A stretch of DNA of 64,000 nt from Lytechinus pictus (Eukaryota), in assembly GCF_037042905.1 (NCBI RefSeq), contig NC_087245.1, positions 20,462,001 through 20,526,000 of the forward strand, written 5' to 3'. Below, one piece after another: positions 3,769 through 35,539 of this stretch. Made by a program: the position numbers and the translations under genes. The notes beneath the pieces are model-generated. The model was not told where the DNA came from. It saw only the letters and a program-made list of their open reading frames with translations, and searched no databases. The first letter of the stretch is position 1. The number at the start of each line of letters is the position of its first letter.

Positions 3769-4571
3769 CTATGAAGAGAATGGTGAGAATGGATAAGAGA
3801 AAGGTGGCAGAAGGGGGGATGGGAGAGAGAGATAGAATGGATGAGAGAGGAAGAGAGATACATGTAGGTAAATAGGTAGTAGGGAAAGAAACAGTGATTA
3901 TAAGAGGGAAATATAGGAGAGAGGGAGTGAGAAAGAACAAGTGGAAGAGTGAGAGAGAGAGTGGACGTGGGAGAGAGAGAGGGGGGGGGGGGTGATTGTA
4001 TGATTGATGGTTCAATGTGAATTTTCAATAAGGGAATGTACGAGGATCTTCATAACAGTCATGCCTAATATTTTGCTCCTGGTAAAATACTGTGATTATC
4101 ATTATATTATGGGGATTTTAAGTAGAATAAAATAAAAATAAAGGGGAAACAAATAAAAGCTTGTATTTCCAGGAATAAGCACAAAGGTATTAGTTGAAGT
4201 TTCATGCTAAAAAATGGAGATTGATAAGAATAAACGAGAAATTAAAAATAAATCCCTTGGGAACCTTGATATAATGATTTCCATGAAATTCAACTCAAAT
4301 ATATATGTAAATCTGTTCCTTGAGCCATTATTCATGTGAAACAGCTGTATTACCGATACCCATCTTATCATTATCAACATGTTTGTAAAAAGCCATGCAA
4401 CTGGACTAAAAATGCATTAGAATTTAGATCCACATACTTTAAGCCTTACACATACATCTTATCTGGAAATGTATTAATACACAAAGACTTCCACCATAGA
4501 AATAAAGTCGATTCTGAGTTAAAAACTTGGATATAAATTCTACAAGTTGGAATGTATAATTGGGTGATCAG

Positions 4572-4716
4572 GGGCCCGTTGCAGAAAGAGTTGCGATCAA
4601 ACGCAACTCAAAAAATCTTGCGCAACTTGATTTTCAGCCAATGAAGCACCCATATTCGGGATTTGCGCTTGATATTTTGACTTGCATTTAAACGCAACTC
4701 TTTCTGCAACAGGTCC
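4572..4716. mobile_element. PIF/Harbinger-like MITE
   Basis: TIR GGGCCCGTTGCAGAAAGAGTTGCG / CGCAACTCTTTCTGCAACAGGTCC; CAG on both sides as a 3-bp TSD. Confidence 0.8.
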
Positions 4717-5237: not shown

Positions 5238-7216
5238 AGATGTGAAATGAGGCAATTAAGAAGCAGAACAAGCTGCATCTTTGATTAGGGTCCTTCTACG
5301 CAAGGTGGAGAGGAAATTACAAGAAACTCATTTCCTACATAGGCAGGATATAAAGGCAATCCCACATGAGATGTTCTCACAAGATGGCTATGATGTTTCA
5401 ATGTACGTTTCTCAAAATGGCTACATATAATGGAAATGTCTATTCAACAACATCTGGGGATTGTAGTATGTTGTAATTTTGCAAGGATAGATCAAGGATT
5501 TGTTAAAATTTAAAGTGAACCCCCCCCCCCTCCTCTCGTCCATCTTCCTTACTCACAAAATAAACATATAGGATTGTGTTAGAGAGCAGGTTTTTTGCAT
5601 TATCAGGTTTGTTGTGTTTTTTGTAAGATTAGCATCTTATTCTAAATAAATTAGAAGGGGGAAGGCAGATTCAGCAAACCCTACCCCTCCCCCTCCATCC
5701 ATCCTTCACCTCCTCCATCCTTCATCTCCTCCTTCCCTCGCCAATGTTCATTTGGACCTATAGATTTCTAATTACACAGGATCGAGTCTTGTTCTTTTGG
5801 CGCCCATAGGGCAGTTCCCAATTAGGGGTATGGAATATTTTCACCGAGCCTTCTGGGTATGAAAACATTCCTTGTTGTTCTAGCTGTCTTGGGGTGCTCA
5901 TATAGTACATTAAACACGGCATGGCCTTCATTCTTCACACTGGTCAACACACATTATCCATTCACATCAATCAGATCTTCATTGAGGAAGAGACAATTGG
6001 GGATACACAAAAATGCACCACTCCCGCCCCAAATGGATTAACATTTTATATCAATATAAACATATTACTAATAACACAAATTACATATCAAACACCAATA
6101 TGAAATAAAAAACCCTATATATTTCTGTGATAAATATATCAATAAGCATAAATATTAACATTATTCTCAGCATAAATCCTATACAAATTATTTACTTAAC
6201 CAATTACCCTAAAACTAATCAATCAAGGGGGATTTGAAATCTAACTTCCACCCCCCCAAAAAAAAATGTCTCTCATAACAGTGTGTAAAGAAAAACCAAC
6301 CTGGAATTGGTGAAAATAGTATCTTATTTCTTCTATTGCCTCTTTCATGCACAAAATCCGACAAGAAAAACATTCATAAAATCCTATTTTGAAAACACCA
6401 ATACGCTTTTTACACTTGCAAAAATTTCCTTAACCCTGTACTATAGGTGGGCCTAAATTGCCATTTAGCCCCACCTATAGTATGGGATTATTTTGGCCCA
6501 GCATAATAGCAGGGTCATTCAAGCAATTGCTGTGCTAAGAGTGATAGTCTGGAGTTGAAAGTCACTTGTGAGAAACGAAACCCAGCCAAGCTAAGGACAG
6601 TGTTCAATGTAAGCCCTAGGGGACAACGGAGCCAGCACCGTCCAATCAGAGATAAGTGCTCATGAATTGCTACCACTAGTCCAGTATTACTGAATTGTGT
6701 GAGAGAAAGGAAGCATTTCCTTAACTGGGGTTAGGTAGAAAATTTGGCCCGTGTGAAAAAGGAAAACAAATAGTATGGGGTTAAGGATAGTACAGGGTTA
6801 AGAAAACATAGTGTAAAAAGTCTATAAGGATATGATAGGAAAAGTTAGAATACAGCATTACACTGACTCCGGGTGTAAGGGGTGCATAAGATTGCTGTAA
6901 GAATGATGACTGATAATATCTGACTGATGGTCTTCCCATATACAGGTGGAAGAGGGGGGGGGGGTGCATCACACATCTGACAAGAGGAAATGATAGCAGG
7001 TGTTCTGGTATTTTCAGAAAGGAAATGGCAACTGATAATAACTTGGTAATGAGATATACAAGAATAGCTCTTTTATATTGTAATGATGGCATCTCATTTC
7101 ATTTAACAAGCAAGAAAAATGAATGAACATTCATTTATGCACAACAACCACTCTTGAATAATCGTTTATGAATGATTTCCGAATGCCATACATATAAACA
7201 TCAAATAACACTTCAG

Positions 7217-8813: not shown

Positions 8814-9512
8814 CTGGTTATGGTTTGGAATAAAAATAGGATTCAAATTGAATGGGATTAAAATCACATTGCAGAGAGGTATTGGGCACAGGATAGTCTC
8901 AGCAAACAAACACTTGTAGAATATACAAAGACATTTGGCTGGTGCATATCAAGGTACAATCAGCTTCAATAGGACGTTCAGAATAAAAGAGCCAACTTCG
9001 ATGCTGATTCACCAAAAGTTATTTTTTGGTTTGTGCAAAATCAAGCTTTATGCGGGTATACAATGACCTCTATGACACTCGGCCTTGACATTGTGGCAAA
9101 AACCTTATCAGAACATAGTTCCTGCCTTAGACATTTATCAGCCAAGTTTAAAGTTAAATCACTAGACAGTTTTTAGGTCATCACAAGAACATTGATTGGA
9201 CAGATGAACAGATAATCCCAAATCAAAATGCCTCTATAAGCAATCCATATCGGGCAAAGAAATAAAAAAAATGGATGAATTTCGTAAATCAAATCATTTA
9301 ACCATGCAATTCTGCTTTCTGTATCCAGTACGAAATGGACAGAGCAGGACAAATATCTTTATTAAAGTTGTAAACACAGAGATTGGACTGAGGAAATACC
9401 TCAGTACCTCTGAACTATCAGGGTACTAAATCTTCCTTAAATTGATCAAACTACCCTGATCCCTTGAGAAGATGGAATGATGATGAATCTGATATTGATG
9501 TCTTTGCCTCAC

Positions 9513-9602
9513 CTTACATGATGTCAGCAGCATTGTGGTAGACTTCTCTAGGGTCGATCGGGTGCATGCCATCTTGGCTTTAGCTCTCTCATCTTTTAAA
9601 TC
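9513..9602 (-). CDS. CTNNAL1: Alpha-catulin coding exon (likely exon 5), 90 nt
   Basis: DLKDERAKAKMACTRSTLEKSTTMLLTSCK. Acceptor tttatcag, donor gtgag. Confidence 0.94.
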
Positions 9603-9674
9603 CTGATAAAATAATAGACAGTAGTACAAAAATAAAATATATCATTGAGGACACTAGTAAGAAATATATATAGT

Positions 9675-9966
9675 GGGGCGTCATGGTCTAGTGGTAATGA
9701 CTCTCGTCTTTTAATCTGAGGGACGTGGGTTTGATTCCAAGCCATGGCATGTTTTCCTTCAGCAAGAAATTTACCCACATTTTGTTCACTCAACCCAGGT
9801 GAGGTGAATAGGTACCTGGTAGGAATTTATTCCTTGAAAGCAGCGTGCGTTAACAGCTGCTCGGCTAAAGCCAGGGTAATTATGCTGCATTGCCGTAGAG
9901 CGCTTAGAGACTTCTGATAAAGTAAGTGCCAAGTGCTATATAAGCAAGTATAATTATTATTATTAT
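9675..9966 (+). mobile_element. tRNA-derived SINE
   Basis: Pol III A box TGGTCTAGTGG (9684-9694) and B box GGTTTGATTCC (9728-9738), a CORE/Meta-like central segment CCTTCAGCAAGAAATTTACCC...ACCCAGGTG...GGTACC, and a (TAT)n tail. Confidence 0.8.
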
Positions 9967-10321
9967 CACTGGAGCAGTTCTAACCAGTTTGGACTGTTTC
10001 AAATGTAACAAGTATGTGTCTGTGTGTGATTATTCTAATGGCTGAGAAACATGATGTGTATTACACTACTCAAAAAAAGTTAAGGACCACTTTTTAAAAC
10101 GTACATAAAGATTTTATACAAGGTGTTTTATTTCTGGAAATACCTCAGTACAACTGTCCTAAATGTCCTTAAACACGCTGTAATCAATTTCACGCATGGA
10201 TGGTTTCAGTTGTTGCACAATGTCTCTCGCATCACTGCACATCCTGAAAAGTGGGCCCCGAGGGGTATCAGCTACCGACATGAAGTGGTAAAAACGAATG
10301 TCTGAGTGTCTTTCAGGCAGT

Positions 10322-11350
10322 TCAGTAACGAGTGTGACCACCTCCTGCAGCAATAACGGCTTCACAGCGCTGTCTCATGGAGCTGATGAGGCGATTGATG
10401 TCTCTGACGTCCAGTGCATCCCATGCAGCCTCCAGAGCCACACCCAGCTGCTGCAGTCCAAGTGGATGGGCTTCGAGCTGCTCGAGACTCCTCCCCATCA
10501 TGTCCCAGACGTGCTCTATCGGGTTTAAGTCCGGGGACCTCGCTGGTCACTCCATACGCTCAATCCCCTGGCCCTCAAGGAACTCGGTCACCACCCTAGC
10601 TCGGTGGGCACGGGCATTGTCATCCATGAAAATTATGTTTTGTCCCACATTTTCTGCAAATGGCACCACTATAGGTTCAAGGACCTCATCCCTGTACCTC
10701 ACTCCTGTCATTGCTCCCCCTGGGACCACGTAGAGACGAGTACGGTTGGCGTAGGTGATGCCTCCCCACACCATGACGCTGCCTCCCCCATAACGGTCAT
10801 GTTCTGCAATACAGGGGTCTGCAAATCTCTCTCCTGGTCGCCTCCAGACTCTCGAACGTCCATCATTGTGGTCAAGGGAAAATCTGCTCTCATCTGTGAA
10901 CAGAACTCTACGCCATTGCTGTCTGGTCCATCTGACATGCTCCCGGGCCCAGTTGAGACGAATTCTTCTGTGAGCAGGGGTGAGTGGGACACACTGAGCT
11001 GGCCGTCTGGCATGCATATTGGCTCTGTGAAGTCGGTTACGGATTGTTTGAGTGGAAACAATCACTCCAGTTGCTGCAGCGAAGTCATTGTTGAGGCGGC
11101 GTGCACTGTGAAAGCGGTTGCGGAGGCTGAGATTCGTCAAGTAGCGATCATCTCTAGGGGTTGTCGAAACTGGTCGGCCACTGCGGGGTCTCTCGGAGTA
11201 TAGCCCTGTCTCTCGGTGTCTTTGATTTGCTCTGCTAATGACACTGTGTGACACGCCCATCATTCTGGCTACTCTTCGCTGACTGAGGCCAGCTTCCAGC
11301 ATCCCTAGGGCTCTGGCTACATCTGTTTCACTTAGGTGGTGTCTTGGCAT
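10322..11350 (-). pseudogene. Second Tc1 transposase copy with a nonsense mutation (TGG>TGA at 10547), giving a 267-aa product without the catalytic E
   Basis: Mirror image of 11682-12710. The frame stops at GIERME*; the downstream codons remain otherwise intact. Confidence 0.92.
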
Positions 11351-11674
11351 TGCTGTTGTAGGCAAGTTGTTGATTGTACAGACTAAAGACGGAAAATGCT
11401 TTGGAAGACACTTGTCTTATGGCCCACTGCAATGATGCCAGAGACATCATGAAAGAACTGCATGTGTGAAATTGATGTCATTGTGTTTGATGGCATTCTG
11501 GACAGCTGTATCTTGGCATTGCTATTGTCAGCAAGTTGTTGATTGTAGAGACTAAAGACAGAAAATGCTTTGGAAGCCACTTTTGTACGGGCACATTGCA
11601 ATGATGCAAGAGACATGAAAGAACTGCATGTGTGAAATTGATTTCATTGTGTTTGATGGCATCCTGGACAGCTG
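11342..11674 (+). repeat. Two diverged tandem direct repeats (~167 and ~164 bp) forming the centre of the palindromic element
   Basis: Units start TCTTGGCATTGCT at 11342 and 11511 and end GGACAGCTG at 11508 and 11674. Confidence 0.9.
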
Positions 11675-11681
11675 GATAGCA

Positions 11682-12710
11682 ATGCCAAGACACCACCTAA
11701 GTGAAACAGATGTAGCCAGAGCCCTAGGGATGCTGGAAGCTGGCCTCAGTCAGCGAAGAGTAGCCAGAATGATGGGCGTGTCACACAGTGTCATTAGCAG
11801 AGCAAATCAAAGACACCGAGAGACAGGGCTATACTCCGAGAGACCCCGCAGTGGCCGACCAGTTTCGACAACCCCTAGACATGATCGCTACTTGACGAAT
11901 CTCAGCCTCCGCAACCGCTTTTACAGTGCACGCCGCCTCAACAATGACTTCGCTGCAGCAACTGGAGTGATTGTTTCCACTCAAACAATCCGTAACCGAC
12001 TTCACAGAGCCAATATGCATGCCAGACGGCCAGCTCAGTGTGTCCCACTCACCCCTGCTCACAGAAGAATTCGTCTCAACTGGGCCCGGGAGCATGTCAG
12101 ATGGACCAGACAGCAATGGCGTAGAGTTCTGTTCACAGATGAGAGCAGATTTTCCCTAGACCACAATGATGGACGTTCGAGAGTCTGGAGGCGACCAGGA
12201 GAGAGATTTGCAGACCCCTATATTGCAGAACATGACCGTTATGGGGGAGGCAGCGTCATGGTGTGGGGAGGCATCACCTACGCCAACCGTACTCGTCTCT
12301 ACGTGGTCCCAGTGGGAGCAATGACAGGAGTGAGGTACAGGGATGAGGTCCTTGAACCTATAGTGGTGCCATTTGCAGAAAATGTGGGACAAAACATCAT
12401 TTTCATGGATGACAATGCCCGTGCCCACCGAGCTAGGGTGGTGACCGAGTTCCTTGAGGGCCAGGGGATTGAGCGTATGGAGTGGCCAGCGAGGTCCCCG
12501 GACTTAAACCCGATAGAGCACGTCTGGGACATGATGGGGAGGAGTCTCGAGCAGCTCGAAGCCCATCCACTTGGACTGCAGCAGCTGGGTGTGGCTCTGG
12601 AGGCTGCATGGGATGCACTGGACGTCAGAGACATCAATCGCCTCATCAGCTCCATGAGACAGCGCTGTGAAGCCGTTATTGCTGCAGGAGGTGGTCACAC
12701 TCGTTACTGA
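11682..12710 (+). CDS. Intact Tc1-family DD34E transposase, 342 aa
   Basis: N-terminal HTH region, GRP linker (RSGRP), VLFTDESRF, VMVWGGI, FMDDNARAH and WPARSPDLNPIEHVW with 34 residues between the second D and E, C-terminal GGHTRY. Confidence 0.95.
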   Translation: MPRHHLSETDVARALGMLEAGLSQRRVARMMGVSHSVISRANQRHRETGLYSERPRSGRPVSTTPRHDRYLTNLSLRNRFYSARRLNNDFAAATGVIVSTQTIRNRLHRANMHARRPAQCVPLTPAHRRIRLNWAREHVRWTRQQWRRVLFTDESRFSLDHNDGRSRVWRRPGERFADPYIAEHDRYGGGSVMVWGGITYANRTRLYVVPVGAMTGVRYRDEVLEPIVVPFAENVGQNIIFMDDNARAHRARVVTEFLEGQGIERMEWPARSPDLNPIEHVWDMMGRSLEQLEAHPLGLQQLGVALEAAWDALDVRDINRLISSMRQRCEAVIAAGGGHTRY

Positions 12711-13135
12711 ACTGCCTGAAAGACACTCAGACATTGGTTTTTACCACTTCATGTCGGTAGCTGATACCCCTCGGGGCCCACTTTTCAGGATGTGCAGTGA
12801 TGCGAGAGACATTGTGCAACAACTGAAACCACTCATGCGTGAAATTGATTACAGCGTGTTTAAGGACATTTAGGACAGTTGTACTGAGGTATTTCCAGAA
12901 ATAAAACACCTTGTATAAAATCTTAATGTACGTTTTAAAAAGTGGTCCTTAACTTTTTTTGAGTAGTGTATATCATTTATTGTGATGCGGATCCTTGTTA
13001 CTAAAAAGCCATCCTCATCTCAAAATCATGAATGTTCAATACAACTAGTCACTTTTATCAGTCATTAGTCAATTTTCCTGCTAGCCATGATAGATGACTT
13101 GTCATGTGATAGATTTCAGCAGATTGCTTGACCAG

Positions 13136-13319
13136 GTGGGTGTTTCATAGAGCTGTTCGTCATTTAAGAGCGACTTTAAGAACGAGTGGTGAACCTTTCT
13201 TACGCTCTAAATAATCACCAATAAGCATTTAATGGTCAAATATCATTTACCACAAGAAAAGATCACCAGTCGTTCTTAAAGTCACTCTTAACTTACAAAC
13301 AGCTTTATGAAACGGCCCC
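13136..13319. mobile_element. PIF/Harbinger-like MITE
   Basis: About 70-bp imperfect TIRs (GTTTCATAGAGCTGTT...GACTTTAAGAACGA and the reverse complement); CAG TSD at 13133-13135 and 13320-13322. Confidence 0.8.
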
Positions 13320-13901
13320 CAGGATCCATATCACCATTTTATAACCACTCATCTTGAAGGGTATACATCAACTGAGGGAAAGAATCAACATTGTAAAGGT
13401 GAGGAATAAATCAGGTGGTAAGAGCCTATCTCACCATCCGACTGGGGAGGTAAGATTATATGTTAAAGATGTAGCTGAAATAGTATCCTAATGTAAATTC
13501 AACAGTGAAAAAAAAAAAACAGGGAAAAAACGGTATGACAATGGAGAAAGAAAGAAAGAAAAGTGAGGAACAAAGAAGTAATTAAAAATACTAATACAGA
13601 ATACAGCTCTAGAGACCCAAAAATAGAAGGTAGCATTATTAAAATATTAATAAATGTGAAAATGTAATAGATAAAAGAGGAAGGGAGATAATGCAAGGGG
13701 TAGAGAGAGGGAGAAAAAAAACATATAAAAGAGAGTAAGCATATGCATGAGAGGGCAAAATAAGACAGATTGAGAAAATAAATGAAATACAAAAGAACAA
13801 GGGAACAAAAAAATCATAGAAAGAGAAAGAGACAAATAGTTAATGAAAGAGAGAAAGGGGCATTGAAAGAGAGGCTGGATATAAGAGCATCCAAAACATA
13901 C

Positions 13902-14021
13902 CATCTGTCTATCCCCAGTTAAATGGGCTAGTTCCACCATCTCCCTGCCAAACTGACTGAAGCATTGAACAAATTCAGTAAAACTTCTGGTCTTATCGAT
14001 ACGCTCTAAGCTGTTACAAAC
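13902..14021 (-). CDS. CTNNAL1: Alpha-catulin coding exon (likely exon 4), 120 nt
   Basis: VCNSLERIDKTRSFTEFVQCFSQFGREMVELAHLTGDRQM; the 'FxEFVQxFSQFGxEMVExAHLxGDRQ' motif is catulin-typical. Acceptor ttccag, donor gtatg. Confidence 0.95.
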
Positions 14022-18906: not shown

Positions 18907-21467
18907 CTGTGTTTAGAGAGGAAGAAGAAAACAAACTTTTCAAGGCTACCTAATTTTTCTGGCATAAAGCGTTGGGTAAGCTAAGTCATCCACTTGTTGG
19001 GTAAGGGTAGTTTAATTGATTGGGCAAACTCTTTTTTTTTTTAGCATTTACTAAAAGTTTGACTGAAAATCAGTCAAAATATTGCCCCAAGGTTTGTTGC
19101 TCATTATTTTTTGTTGTTGGAAGCATTGGCTTTGCACTTTCACAGTTCACCTTGCCATATATGCTTGTGTATATATATTTTTTGCAGCAGTTAACAAGTA
19201 GATAGTGAATGGGGGGGGGGGGGACAGACCTCCCCTCTTTCCTCTGAATAGACATCCCAACTTCCAAGGAGTGCTGGCAAGGTAGAAATGTTGTGTGGTG
19301 GCATTGAAATGTCAAAATAATAAAAATCAAAACATATTTCTTACCAATAATGGGTAAGGGGAAAGTACTCTATTTCTTACTTCAAATGCTTTTTATTTCA
19401 TAGGTGATAAATAAAGTAGGTGTTAGAGTCTTGGAACATTTTCTTCATGTTCAACAGAAAATAAGATGCATGAGGGACATATGGGTGCAACTTAAAAGAT
19501 CTGAAAAGGACAAGAAGAAGGGAAAAGGGTTAAGATGCAGAAAGAGAGAGAAAAAAGAAATAGTAGATTTGTAGAGAGACAGTCACATGAAGAGAAACAG
19601 GAATGAGAAAAAAGGTGTCAAAGAAAGGAAATTAGAAAGGAGGAAATATATGAAAGAAACATCTTCGAAATTGAAGTAAGATAAAATACTCTAGCTAAAA
19701 ATACAAACATTTAAAGGTTTGTCATTCAATCTTCTATACAGAAAACTGAAAAATAAAGAAGAGAGCACAATAGAGAGAGAGAGAGGCAGATAGATAAAGG
19801 CAGAAAAAACAGAGACGAAAAAGACGAGGAGGGAGACAGACAGACTGATAGAGAGTGAAAATGACAGAGATTGAAACCGAGGGTTAGAGTTTGAGCGAGA
19901 AAAGTACAATGTAGCTGAGAAATAGAGGAGACAGAGACAAAGACAGAATCATTGGACAGGGCAGGGAAAGTGATATACTGTAGATTTCATTGGTCCAAGC
20001 AATGGACAAAGAAACAGAGAGGACTTCAGATAAGTCTCATTTTTAGAAGACATAAAATCATCAATAAACATCACATCAGAAGTGGGTCAGAATGCTCCAG
20101 AAAATCAAATTAATCTAAAGAATCCTAGCAATGATGAGCATTTCATGACAGACTCTCAAAGAATGCTGCAATGTCATGCACCTGCCGTGAATTTTCCATT
20201 ACATTAACAACATCTACAGATCAACAGCATGAAAGCTATCTACTGGGTTCCGCTCCGCAGCCTTGGAATTCTTTTTTCAACAAAAAATTACTTCAAAAAT
20301 ATAATCAGTAGTCTGTATGGAATCAATGTATTCACTTTCAGCCATCCAATCATAAAGCAACAAATTTTGAGGAAGAAATAGAATACATGTTCTAACAATC
20401 TTATTTACTTTGTTGAGTTAAAATGATCACATCCAAAATAACGAAGAATCCTGAGTAGGATGTTTATCATTATAAAGCAAATAATGTCCAGTTGATCAAA
20501 CTAAATATTTGCTACACTTTTAAGGAAAGATCCTTCAGTATCCCCTCCCCCTATTCCCTAAATTAGAGAAACCTTACATGTAAGTAGATTAATTTGAAAC
20601 TATCCTTTTTACATGTATTTTAGACAATTTAAGATATCACCAAAGAAAAAAAATATTTTGATCACTTCCACAAGACTAAAATTATAAATGTAATAGTAAA
20701 TTGGGCCGTTGTTTCATTGTGTAATATTATACCAAATAATTACTTTGTGTGACAAAAGAAAGATTTTTTTTTAAGTCTGAAAGAACTATTATTTATCCAT
20801 CTGAGACAATATCTATACTGTACATCATGCTCTTAAAATGTTCCATCAGTCCAAATGAAAAAGGCAAAAAGGACTATCAATGCAGTATCAAACACGGTCT
20901 GAGCAACATCCAACATGTATCTGATTTTACGATATGGGACCCCTAAAGCGGTGTGAACAATTACATCCCCTGCCCCGATCTCTGTACTCCCTATATAGCT
21001 TCCGCCTGCCCTGCGGACATAATGTATCTCACTTTAATCAACTAATCAATGCCAACTGATACAGGAAATGAAACTCGGATGAACTGGACGGTCTGAATGG
21101 TCAGTGGCCAGTGTGAACGTATCCCCTGATGCTTATTACCCAATGCTCTTCAATTAACATGATGTGTCCAAATAGAATCTATTTTCACGATCTTTAGTAG
21201 ATATGAAACTTATATTAATGTTCCACATGTGCATGTTATAACTCTGCAAATAGAAATAAATCCACAGCTTCATGAACAAAAATACATACCGAAATTTATA
21301 ACTGTTGGTAACATTCTACTTAATGAAACATTCATTTAAAAGTATATGAAAAGCTCACTTGAAATTCACAAGATGAGTTGTATGTTGATACAGAAATTAT
21401 ACATGAAGAAAATGGGATTAGAACTTGTTACATATGCATAGACCTCTATATGAAACAATGATTAGAA

Positions 21468-27571: not shown

Positions 27572-28950
27572 CAGTGCGTATAAAAAAAAACGGGACAGAT
27601 TTGAAAAGTCTATAAAATTTTAGTTTCAAATAATGATGTCTATATTTTGGTGTTAATAGATGCTCTAAGGTCTTATCTTTGAAATGCAATTTAAAAAAAT
27701 AAATTTTATTCATGCTTGACCGAACACGGGACGTTTTTGTTGGGGGTTCAAAAAGAGGCTTGCGCCAGAATTGCAGAATATGTGTAATACAATGATCAGA
27801 CTTCTTGCTAATCAGGAGACTTCCTCTTGACCTTTTCATTATCTGTGCCACAATTTTCGAATTATGTTGTCAAATTTCATTTACAAAGTTATTTATTTAA
27901 TTGAATTATTTTGTTTTTTCATTTAAACTTCTCTTACCTTTTAATTTTCCTTCAAAAGTAACTGAGAAAAGAAGATTTTTTTTTGTTAACCCAAGCAAGA
28001 AGATTTGAATTATTAATTGGGAAAACTTGTGATTATTCAAATCGTTTTATTATGTGAAACAAATTATGTTATGTACCTTTAAAAGACATGAATCTATTTT
28101 TCAATGGGTCATTAATTCGTTGACCAAGTTTAATTGCTTGACAGGAAACACAGGAAGGGATTCATGTCTTTCAATGACAATGGTGTATTGAGTCAATTTA
28201 GAAGGAGCTAGATATGGCAGATCGGGTAAAATGTATTAAAAAGTTGTGAGCGAGCGAAGTGAGCACGCAAATATTCCCAATTTTTTTAATTACAATATCA
28301 AATTTTGTGATAGATTTTGACATAATATTCAGCAAATAATATCATATTTTACTTTCTATCTTTCCTTTTATTTCCTGTCCACTTTTTTTCTTGGTCATTA
28401 TTTTTTTTAATTGAGGGGGGGGGGGAGCAACCCCCGAGCGCCCGCCCATCTGTGTGGCTTTGTTCAAAAGGCACCATAACCTTTGTAGCACATAATGAAA
28501 GGATTTGAATAAAAAATCCATGCTCTCCCATAATTCGGTTGAAAAAAAAAAATTTAGCTTGAAGAAGGAATATTCAAAGCTAACAGAGAGCATATTAAAA
28601 AGAGATAACAGAATAATTCAATCAAATAACTAGATCTGAAAATGAATTTTGACCGCATGATTTGAAAATTATGGCAAAGATAATGAAAAGTTTAAGAGGA
28701 AGTCTGCTAATTAGCAAGAAGTCCGATCATCATATTACTCATATTCTGCAATTCTGGCGCAAGCCTCTTTTTGAACCCCCAACAAAACCGTCCCGTGTTC
28801 GCTCAAGCATGAACAAAACTAATTTTTTTTAATAGCATTTGAAAGACAAGACCTTAGAGCACCGATTAACACCAAAATATAGACATAATAATTTGAAACT
28901 AAAATTTTATGGGCTTTTCAAATCTGTCCCGTTTTTTTTTATACGCACTG
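27572..28950. mobile_element. Non-autonomous Tc1/mariner element with ~310-bp TIRs
   Basis: TA|CAGTGCGTATAAAAAAAAACGGGACAGATTTGAAAAG... mirrored at the right end followed by TA; arms about 27572-27881 and 28641-28950; no transposase ORF inside. Confidence 0.9.
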
Positions 28951-31376: not shown

Positions 31377-34300
31377 CTGTCAAGATAAAATCAACATGTT
31401 AACACTGCTTCCTGTCCTTATTCTCATGAGGTGAAATATATCATGAAAATAGCCATTCGTCTGGAGGTTCGATATCAATAAATTATTCAACCAATAATCA
31501 TCATTGTTTCCCCCTTCTGTATCCTCCTGGGATCAAATGTGTCAGGAAAATACTCATGTTAACATTTACTAGCATTTGGATGATCTATAATGTCAACGTC
31601 AAAACAAAAATGTTCTTCTTTCATTATTTTGCGAGGGGGGATTTTTTATTCAAAAAAAAAAATTCACATCTTCATCACCACAGAGTCAAACGTCATAGCA
31701 TATTATCAATTACATTGATTTATTTAAGCTTAATGCAAAACTAAATTAGCTGCTACAAGCAATGATTTCATGAAAAAGTCTTCAAAATCAAGTTTTCATT
31801 ACAATACTGTTATAGATCTATATCTTGTTTGTTAGTATACATAACCTAACTTTGTGAAAACGGTTGTTGTCAAACAAAGGTTCCGGCAGGAATGCCATGC
31901 TTATATTGCTCATCTTTTTGCAATTACACATTATTAATCAGAATTATTCTTGCACATATTTCTTATTTATTTATATACATGTATACAAACACCTGGGTGA
32001 TAGATTGTTAACAATGTTGGAAATCACATTTAAAAGATCAATAGTATAAATTCTCTTGTAAAGCTCTACTATCTGTTTAAATGAATTGACATTCACACAA
32101 AGAATCAGAGAGTAGAATATCCTTTACTCTCTTCGTTGGAGCAACAAAAAAAAAGGTAATTTCTTCTGGTTTTTTAAATCTATTGAATGAAACTGTCAAT
32201 GAATTAACACATACTGCTAGATTACCGATTTAAAACATTCCTTGATATATCTTTGTTAGAAATTGACCAAAGAACTTAGATAAAGATGACATTGTTTTCA
32301 TCTTTTTAAGTGTGTGTCTGTGTTTCTATATGCTCTGTGCCATTCTTTTAGAGGCAAAAAGACTTCATTAATTAACATGCTGTTGGGCACATGTGAAACT
32401 TGTTTAACGTATCCTTAGAATATCCACGTCGGCTTTCTCTGCTAACGTAGCCACTGCTGCAAAACTGGAGCATCTATTAGAAGCCAGCATCCATTCTCCA
32501 TCAACATTTCTTATCTGTGCCCTATCCTCTGACTTCACTGAGAACCGGCAGGTCGATCTTCATGCACGGTAAAGCTATCATATTACCCTATTCATGACTT
32601 TAGCACTCCTCTTCACTCTCATCTACAAGTCCATATGCCTTGCGATCCCTGACATAACGTCTCATCTTGCTACAATGTAGGGACGACTGTCTTACGGAAA
32701 AGGAGCCTACCTAACTCAATTGCGGATTGATAATTTCTTTATCAGCAAAGGATAATTTGATTAGAGATTTCCATAATGATTGCAAATGTGACATTTAGCC
32801 TGCAGGCTGGATATTGCCTTTCACTTGTTTTAGACTTATGCATGCCACATCATTAAAGACAATACCTGTATTTTCGTTCATGCTTAAGTTGTACAATACC
32901 AAGAAATTTTACTACATACAGTATCGCAGCTCTAGGTATTATTTGTATGGGATGCACATGCACACCACCTTTGCATTATGAATTCATCCCATATTTTTAT
33001 TTATTTATTCATGGATAGAAACCAATAATGAATTCCTTGAAAGTGAATATCGTTCAAATGTAAATTCAAATGTTTCTTGCTGTTTGCAGCAAACATAAAT
33101 GTATTAAAGAGTAATGATAAGAAATGACTTTTTAGAAATATATATCTTGATACTTTCATCAGTGTGAAAGTATAAAAAAATCACTTCAGTATTCCTCTTA
33201 TCCTGCCAATATGTTGAAATGAAAATAACCATCTGAAATCTACAAGGTAGAATGATTTTGATGATTTGTGTTGCCAATCCAATAATTTCTGAACAAAGCA
33301 TGTCTATTTCTATTACTCTCTGATATTAATTGTAATGTATTGTATCAGAACACAATTGCGGACATTATCTCTCCCCCCTTTTAAGCGTGCATCTGCTGCA
33401 TCATTTTAAACAGGCTCCATGCAAATAAGAGATTTTTAATCTAAAGACCATAACCGCCACCCCCCCCCCCAAAAAAAAAAAACAATAATGATAATCATAA
33501 AATAATGAAGAAAAAAAACTATAAATAAAATAATAAACAATAATAAATGTTACAAAAACAAAAAAATAATAAATTTACTTAATTTGTTCATAGGCCTATA
33601 TGGATTAAAAAAGAAGACCCCTTAAAAATAAAGCTTACTGATTGATCATGGGGCTGTCTGATCATGCACAATTTTTAATAAATAAGTGTTTGGTACCGCA
33701 AAATCGTAAAATAGCCTTAAAAACAGAAATACGAAGCTTTTCGACATGCACTCATCAGAGTAAAATCGCATGAATAACTAAAACGCCAGAGCGAAACAAT
33801 ATATAATAAAAACAGAAGAGACAATCGACGCTAAACGGCGAGCAGTGATTGGCTATCAAGGTAAACAATGTAGGCTTAATACCAAGCTTCAGTATGTCTT
33901 TTTAAAGGCCATTTTAGAATTCTGAATGCAATCAATCATAAAAATCAGCCACACGATTAACTGCAAAGCTTCGTATTACAAGGCCCAGAATTAAAATTGA
34001 TTTTTTTTTCCTCATGTCATCGTGGAGCAATCATTGCAAATCACATTTTTGTGAACTCTTTCCTGGATGACACCTGATTGACAAGCACTTTTCATTTGCA
34101 ATGCACAGGTGAACACTCTACACATGACTGACCTAATAACCTTATTCTAAAGGTTCGCTACACTGCATAACAAGCTTGGCGATGAAAATGGGCAGGCCCC
34201 AAGGTAAACTGGTCAATTTATCTCACTCAAACTGTCCAGACACACAATTTTATCTTCTGCTTCGCTATTTTGGAAGCATCCTTTTTTTTTCACTAAATCC

Positions 34301-35143: not shown

Positions 35144-35539
35144 ACAAGATGTACTTGTAATGCCCAGTAACAATTAATATGCATTAAAATATCATGCACA
35201 TAATTATAAGACTTTCATTATATCATGAACAATGCCTAATGCTTTGGGTCTTATAGGTAAAGGGCTTAAAAAGAAATAATGATATTTAATAAGTGTGATT
35301 TCATTGCCTAAAGTATGTCTAAACATAGGCAAAAGACTGATGTACAAGATGTACTTGTAATGCCCAGTAACAATTAATATGCATTAAAATATCATGCACA
35401 TAATTATAAGACTTTCATTATATCATGAACAATGCCTAATGCTTTGGGTCTTATAGGTAAAGGGCTTAAAAAGAAATAACGATATTTAATAATTATGATT
35501 TCATGGCCTAAAGTATGTCTAAACATAGGCAAAAGACTG
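35144..35539 (+). repeat. Tandem duplication, 200-bp period, two near-identical copies
   Basis: ACAAGATGTACTTGTAATGCCCAG...AAAAGACTG at 35144-35339 and 35344-35539, with only a few mismatches. Confidence 0.92.

Follow-up and report, generated by a model that had tools for sequence, protein, structure and literature searches.

The 64,000-nt stretch of Lytechinus pictus DNA analysed here (contig NC_087245.1, positions 20,462,001 to 20,526,000; hereafter the window, position 1 being its first letter) carries at 10064–12968 a Tc1-type unit in which two divergent transposase genes form the arms of one long inverted repeat. An earlier note had described this unit and its basic dimensions were borne out: it is 2905 bp long with a TA on both sides, and its two inverted arms measure 1291 bp each (1293 with the TA), differ by 11 mismatches and no indels (99.1% identity), and run, as claimed, from 4 nt 5' of the ATG to 258 bp past the stop position. 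Among the 39 inverted pairs of the 64-kb window this is the longest. Similarity of the flanks ends at the TA, the next 100 nt on each side agreeing at 29 of 100 positions, and the rejoined flanks match no other repeat within the window. The statement that no 5' terminus lies within the unit also held; the best internal match to the 34-nt terminus reached 19 of 34 positions. The parts of the unit are as follows.

10062–10063, no strand: left TA, a likely target-site duplication, from sequence
10064–10097, plus strand: terminal repeat of 34 bp (inferred length), apparently common to both ends (5' and 3') of the parent family, placed by a joint 10097/10185 in the contig of public run X11 that has a normal 5' end
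10064–11354, minus strand: left arm, comprising the 3' terminus, 258 bp of 3' sequence, the transposase gene and 4 nt of leader, and running on into the native 5' region of the spacer
10322–11350, minus strand: left transposase gene, cut short at codon 268 by a TGA (10549–10547), leaving 267 aa without the catalytic Glu (E279)
11339–11508, minus strand: 5' repeat unit 1, the native upstream region of the family, overlapping the first codons of the left gene (sequence and public runs)
11509–11674, minus strand: 5' repeat unit 2, 166 bp, ~88% like unit 1 and followed in the family by a further unit (a joint leading 166 bp back in 3/3 contig runs)
11664–11681, plus strand: twin-specific junction, with the break after 11674 at a unit boundary, a short slipped duplication with one change, and a 5-nt match, ACAGC
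11678–12968, plus strand: right arm, an inverted copy of gene and 3' end, occupying the place of the family's last 5' unit and 5' terminus
11682–12710, plus strand: right transposase gene, open, 342 aa, DD34E, with Pfam DDE_3 and HTH_Tnp_Tc3_2
12969–12970, no strand: right TA, a likely target-site duplication, from sequence

The two genes are in different states. A full DD34E open reading frame (ORF) had been claimed for each arm, and this holds for the right ORF, in which D153, D244 and E279 are present and 34 residues separate D244 from E279. It fails for the left ORF because of its stop at codon 268: Trp268 is retained in 100 of 100 aligned homologues, and the family letter at this site encodes Trp in all four public runs described below. 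The right gene scores above the cut-offs of both HTH_Tnp_Tc3_2 and DDE_3, and so has the N-terminal helix-turn-helix DNA-binding region together with the DDE domain. It bears four private replacements (D67H, H81Y, C180Y and G211V) and only 4–6 nt of native leader are left upstream of it; an in-frame ATG lies further upstream at 11628. Since the gene that kept its upstream region has a stop while the open gene has no upstream region, this copy is likely non-autonomous. The description of the unit as twin-gene suits its likely founder and not the present copy, given the stop on the left and the four replacements and lost native upstream on the right. The unit has terminal inverted repeats (TIRs) bounded by TA, as Tc1 elements do, but not the single transposase gene flanked by one 5' and one 3' end; that layout is present in the parent form seen in public runs. 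By these sequence features the transposase is a Tc1 DD34E member and the unit a derivative, a non-canonical Tc1.

The 323-bp spacer, whose make-up the earlier note overlooked, consists of two direct repeats of ~166–170 bp each that are 87.9% alike over 173 nt. Each is the reverse complement of the gene's first codons, the 5' leader and a stretch 71–73% like the 3' subterminal region. A search of public runs bears on where this arrangement comes from. Twenty-four runs were listed and four were aligned to positions 9500–11705 of the window: X1, X7 and X11 as contigs, and X23 as raw reads. Contigs drop rare forms, and joints were judged from 24 of the 802 contig pieces. Part of 11300–13600 is contained in 20 of the 24 runs; two runs from the same sample as X7 contain almost none of the element's words, and no horizontal transfer between the coded organisms A–E is proposed. 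In all three contig runs a single 1498-nt contig tracks 10068–11565 with three or four differing letters, and unit 2 continues into a further 166-bp unit. The last unit passes into a 74-nt stretch ~90% like the 3' subterminal region in two of the three contig runs (X1 and X11) and in seven raw reads of X23. In X11 the same type of contig extends to the terminal repeat. An ordinary 5' end beyond the units is thus seen in X1, X11 and X23, and none is listed for X7. Summed together, these contigs describe a parent of roughly 1.9 kb: a young DD34E Tc1 with one gene, a 5' region made of tandem 166-bp units and a normal 5' end. Copies in the public runs are of this conventional single-ORF kind. Near-identical transposases (at least 98%) occur on short ENA and Logan contigs; one of them, P0123, is present on 18 contigs and is like the left gene except at the stop, while it departs from the right gene at four residues. 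The N-terminal extension of database protein P0128 matches the native upstream region, unit 1.

Some further observations concern this family. The parent carries a tandem array of ~166-bp units, each closing with the gene's first codons, and the number of units may vary. A 30-aa extension of database proteins P0126, P0128 and P0134 resembles a mix of units 1 and 2. A relative in organism F (run X23) appears mainly in an internally deleted form, with a depth of ~20 up to 10830 and 0–3 beyond, and in three reads the terminal repeat is joined to the opposite strand at 10804. A transposase of the sea spider Nymphon striatum (P0121, KAG1665120.1) is ~90% identical, with 33–36 differences over 337 residues, and falls in the same 90% cluster. 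Its presence there is a hint, at the level of protein similarity, of horizontal transfer between marine phyla.

We used the single-gene form to sort the differences between the arms. The contigs differ from the left arm at 10200, 10547 and 10634, and carry the right arm's letter at all three. All 11 arm differences are private, three to the left and eight to the right (p 0.23 for the asymmetry, not significant), and no change against the family form is shared; divergence from that form is 0.23% for the left arm and 0.62% for the right. The lack of shared changes means that both ORFs were likely intact when the unit was born. Judged by these substitutions, a family-type copy whose gene was still intact likely served as template for the duplication, no later than about a third (<=~35%) of the way through this copy's age. 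Replacement or nonsense changes make up five of the seven coding changes, against a share of 0.76 expected if neutral (p 0.67, with little power), and the arms apparently decayed independently and neutrally.

These counts bear directly on two other explanations. The 99.1% identity of the arms and the one open ORF would fit an established family of twin-gene elements in which selection maintains both genes and arm-to-arm conversion homogenises the arms. Conversion would leave changes shared by both arms, and with none found over 1291 bp there is no sign of it. Furthermore, each arm resembles the single-gene form at least as closely as it resembles the other arm, and the two have taken up one nonsense and four replacement changes. 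For this copy an established family is largely refuted by the substitution pattern, and we give the idea very little credence. The palindrome might also be an assembly artefact, produced by a fold-back read or by mis-joined haplotypes, and none of the four runs spans the junction or ties the element to its flanks. An artefact would hardly place the ends of the palindrome exactly at TA-bounded termini, nor yield 11 arm differences without indels, each made of one family letter and one private letter; the flanking exons are correct in order and strand, and the junction offers an assembler no overlap to work with. We consider an artefact highly improbable.

At the junction the window departs from the family path. 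It tracks this path up to 11674, the exact end of unit 2, and then passes through three letters into the right arm. Five letters, ACAGC, are common to the end of unit 2 and the leader of the left gene, and 11664–11680 is a slipped duplication (8–9 nt) with one change. Near-tandem 8-mers occur at three of 2889 element positions, two of which are at the junction, in a post hoc test whose length was picked after inspection. The junction can be read as the 5-nt match plus the slipped duplication, and an alternative reading via the start of unit 2 fits as well. We also tried a cryptic internal end at the unit boundary (TA then CAGCTG) and rejected it, as it resembles the terminus only in its first letters.

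The breakpoint directly precedes a TA in the family (an 11509-type boundary), and the right arm's leader (ATAGCA before the ATG) fits a unit-2 type of start and not that of the left gene. Both would suit a composite of two copies, in which a second copy inserted head-to-head at the unit-boundary TA of the first, its 5' part was deleted, and the pair was moved by its outer 3' ends; no shared derived change would be expected from two young copies either. Such a history requires three events, though, no trace of an inner terminus is seen (19/34 at best), and a slipped duplication plus one substitution explain all the junction letters. We therefore hold it to be improbable. The claim that this is one unit with two 3' ends, and not two complete insertions, is instead supported by the layout of the arms, the lack of an inner terminus and the use of the family's 5' region as spacer.

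We favour, with a probability of roughly 0.6, an origin from a single-gene DD34E Tc1 by a template switch during gap repair, followed by movement of the resulting 3'-3' unit into the intron of the alpha-catulin gene in which it now sits. The last 5' repeat unit and the 5' terminus would have been exchanged for an inverted whole gene and 3' end. After excision, repair synthesis from the 5' side may have jumped to the 3' end by way of the 34-bp terminal repeat that both ends share; copying would then have proceeded inward through the gene, and the new strands would have been joined at the 5-nt microhomology with a short slipped duplication. This would be the gap-repair model proposed for Goblin carried much further inward. 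The founder would have had two intact ORFs and two complete 3' ends. Its excision and reinsertion at a new TA could have been carried out by transposase of ordinary copies or of its own left gene, whose native upstream region was retained. Both arms would then have decayed, leaving a present copy that is probably non-autonomous.

One end of the unit is replaced by an inverted copy of another part of a known parent. Compared by structure, it behaves like the long-TIR derivatives formed by end replacement (Rpmar49/Rpmar17, Goblin, Dromar) and is an extreme case in which a whole gene was copied. It is not a MITE (a miniature transposable element with inverted repeats): such elements are short and without a whole ORF, and it has 2905 bp and one open 342-aa ORF. 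In Rpmar49 of Rhodnius prolixus, reported from 13 independent copies, the 5' part is replaced by the inverted 3' part (PMC4678618). Rpmar49 and Rpmar17 resemble the unit as Tc1/mariner derivatives with an inverted 3' part for the 5' part and very long TIRs with transposase homology; they differ in being mariner DD34D elements described as non-autonomous (PMC4678618). The replaced part is 221 bp in Rpmar49, and copies of Rpmar17 are mostly 900–950 bp long with the longest above 1700 bp, against 1291-bp arms that hold the whole coding region here (PMC4678618). Goblin, a MITE derived from Ozma in Aedes aegypti, likewise has inverted 3' subterminal sequence behind its left TIR and shows microhomology and a small insertion at the junction, but is described as 213 bp long with 54-bp TIRs and no gene; 15 copies are reported and a template-switch gap-repair model was proposed for them (PMC3814204). 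In the Drosophila MITEs Dromar7, 11, 28 and 36, one end is an inverted copy of the other and the TIRs are unusually long, and these rearranged elements have amplified; unlike the unit they are 5'-5' and not 3'-3', shorter than 1 kb and described as non-autonomous (PMC4161770).

The suggestion that this layout is undescribed was upheld in part. No paper on whole-gene arms was found, whereas end replacement itself is known (Rpmar49/Rpmar17, Goblin) from shorter, non-autonomous elements. A Tc1 with two whole inverted transposase genes was not found in the literature by title and start of abstract, a search whose scope excluded supplements, Repbase, Dfam and most subscription journals.

Two further classes were considered and rejected. 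FB and the sea-urchin TU fold-back elements have long inverted arms. We rejected the fold-back class (FB, Galileo, TU) since the arms here are coding and no tandem array is reported in 10064–12968. In Tn5 and Tn10, two inverted transposase modules work via their outer ends, and one of the Tn5 modules carries a nonsense change; each module is a full insertion sequence with both ends, and cargo lies between them. A composite transposon of this type was rejected because the unit has no inner terminus and its spacer is the family's own 5' region. Tn630-NC1 is likewise reported as a composite of two inverted transposase modules acting through their outer ends (PMC11544213). Galileo also has long inverted arms, with internal sequence drawn into TIRs of up to 1107 bp among the lengths seen, but it belongs to the P superfamily, its arms are internally repetitive, and its longest-TIR copies are described as being without a transposase ORF, whereas here the arms are the ORF (PMC3573991).

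In the favoured account the unit likely moved. The ability to move as a palindrome is likely by analogy: neither end is incomplete, and amplification of 3'-3' derivatives is on record (PMC4678618). Mos1 with two right ends gave 26-fold more transposition in vitro than the natural pair (PMC4505599). Several observations weigh on the other side. Mboumar-9 favours its left end, and with two right ends it was 3-fold less active than its natural pair, so that the end preference is not general (PMC4505599). The twin junction was seen in none of the four runs, being uncovered by contigs in all three contig runs and with no such joint among those listed for X23. Depth in the bin 11646–11705 (8.54, 10.4 and 2.01) equals that of the loop contig alone (8.55, 10.44 and 2.01), and the main and loop contigs are unbroken where a common twin form would branch. 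Without junction or branching in the contig runs, the twin is at most a minor form in those samples. Finally, formation in place accounts for the data equally well. In such a one-off accident an ordinary copy in the intron would have been excised and rebuilt by the same template switch, and the twin would never have moved. The zero of four for the junction fits this; the old 5' outer end and its TA can be kept thanks to the shared 34-bp terminal repeat, and the lack of shared arm changes is expected too if the event came soon after insertion, within <=~35% of the copy's age. We nevertheless rate a purely local event as rather unlikely.

The unit lies inside an intron of the alpha-catulin gene, a setting that the earlier note overlooked.

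13902–14021, minus strand: exon of alpha-catulin, upstream of the element, with 40 aa that are 100% identical to Lytechinus pictus alpha-catulin-like (P0149)
9603–13901, minus strand: alpha-catulin intron, 4299 bp, GT..AG, of which the element fills 68%
9513–9602, minus strand: alpha-catulin exon downstream of the element; Pfam Vinculin at E 0.006, below the curated cut-off

By tblastn, the minus strand carries the alpha-catulin exons in their proper order within 31427–237. Further exons at 31427–31185 and 18907–18725 match the 782-aa protein P0150. The L. pictus protein P0149 (589 aa) starts within the exon at 18907–18725, and its annotation may be truncated. A flanking alpha-catulin exon has a contig depth of 211 in run X1, the RNA nature of which is a guess. 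The top word share in the runs was 0.60. A single-gene form lacking both flank and junction would give 0.593, and the flank would add 0.26; since the top share equals the expectation for the element alone, no run is demonstrated to hold the alpha-catulin locus. Between the element and the downstream exon, 9700–9965 is a very high-copy interspersed repeat, likely a short interspersed element, with a summed contig depth above 100,000 in X1.

The left gene, now broken, lies in the sense direction of host transcription, and the open right gene lies antisense to it. Host pre-mRNA is predicted to fold into a 1.29-kb duplex over the whole transposase ORF, a possible substrate for editing or for small-RNA production. 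Folding of the central 631 nt gave -395 kcal/mol (z -26), as expected of any such repeat. The unit thus has the inverted duplication of transposase sequence, able to form long double-stranded RNA (dsRNA), that is typical of killer loci. In maize, Mu killer and the Ac composite-insertion killers likewise hold an inverted transposase duplication, there readable by a host promoter into a long hairpin RNA; they differ in belonging to other superfamilies, in plants, in having partial genes, and in that their silencing was demonstrated experimentally, whereas read-through, small RNA and silencing would be predictions for the unit (PMC3440606; bioRxiv 10.1101/2020.01.07.897926). More speculatively, end replacement could have given rise to a palindromic Tc1 lineage that is autonomous and uses its own transposase genes as TIRs. 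With two preferred 3' ends it would outdo its parent in spreading, and its intronic copies would help to silence the family through their 1.3-kb dsRNA over the whole ORF. We think this unlikely.

Relatives were also sought more widely. A protein scan of JGI metagenomes gave 14 loci from 237 pattern matches, all of them distant (28–44% identity), and self-comparison, with tblastn on four, showed two whole inverted genes in none of the 14. None of five pattern matches in viral contigs was a relative, and the terminal 27-mer was found in no prokaryote contig and no viral contig. A PDB search with the exon-bearing ORF gave no match. A sigma-70 promoter scan returned one site against 0.8 expected; being irrelevant to an animal gene, it was set aside. 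Among the loci, L003 has a 160-bp ORF piece inverted just outside the 5' repeat of a distant Tc1 (39% identity), with 4499–4659 and 5259–5422 being 93% alike. L008 has a 356-bp self-palindrome at 4356–4711 (also L007, 144–499) upstream of a partial Tc1 relative, enclosed by a pair of 149-bp inverted repeats.

Other features of the window include a second TA-flanked element in the alpha-catulin gene at 27572–28950, with ~360-bp inverted arms (89%) and ends that begin CAGTG; its 667-bp centre is without a long ORF and it is likely a non-autonomous element of Tc1/mariner type. The word TACATGTA occurs 32 times in the window (1–64000), against ~2.2 expected from base composition, and the ends of the 2905-bp unit would not obviously leave it. 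A tandem duplication with a 200-bp unit, 97% alike, lies at 35144–35539.

If the twin was a single accident, it is a neat example of a gap-repair error and little more. Altogether, end replacement, a rearrangement known from small non-autonomous MITEs, is here extended to an element that once held two whole genes. If it did spread, a Tc1 transpososome can cope with a near-perfect palindrome of 1.3 kb, a genome can retain it, and neither TIR length nor the single-ORF layout would serve as a marker of the family. A palindromic lineage, if true, would be an animal and self-mobile counterpart of Mu killer. With parent and derivative in one laboratory sea-urchin genus, it becomes testable whether transposition in nature gains from 3'-3' ends, and also whether silencing of a young animal DNA transposon begins with its intronic fold-back copies.

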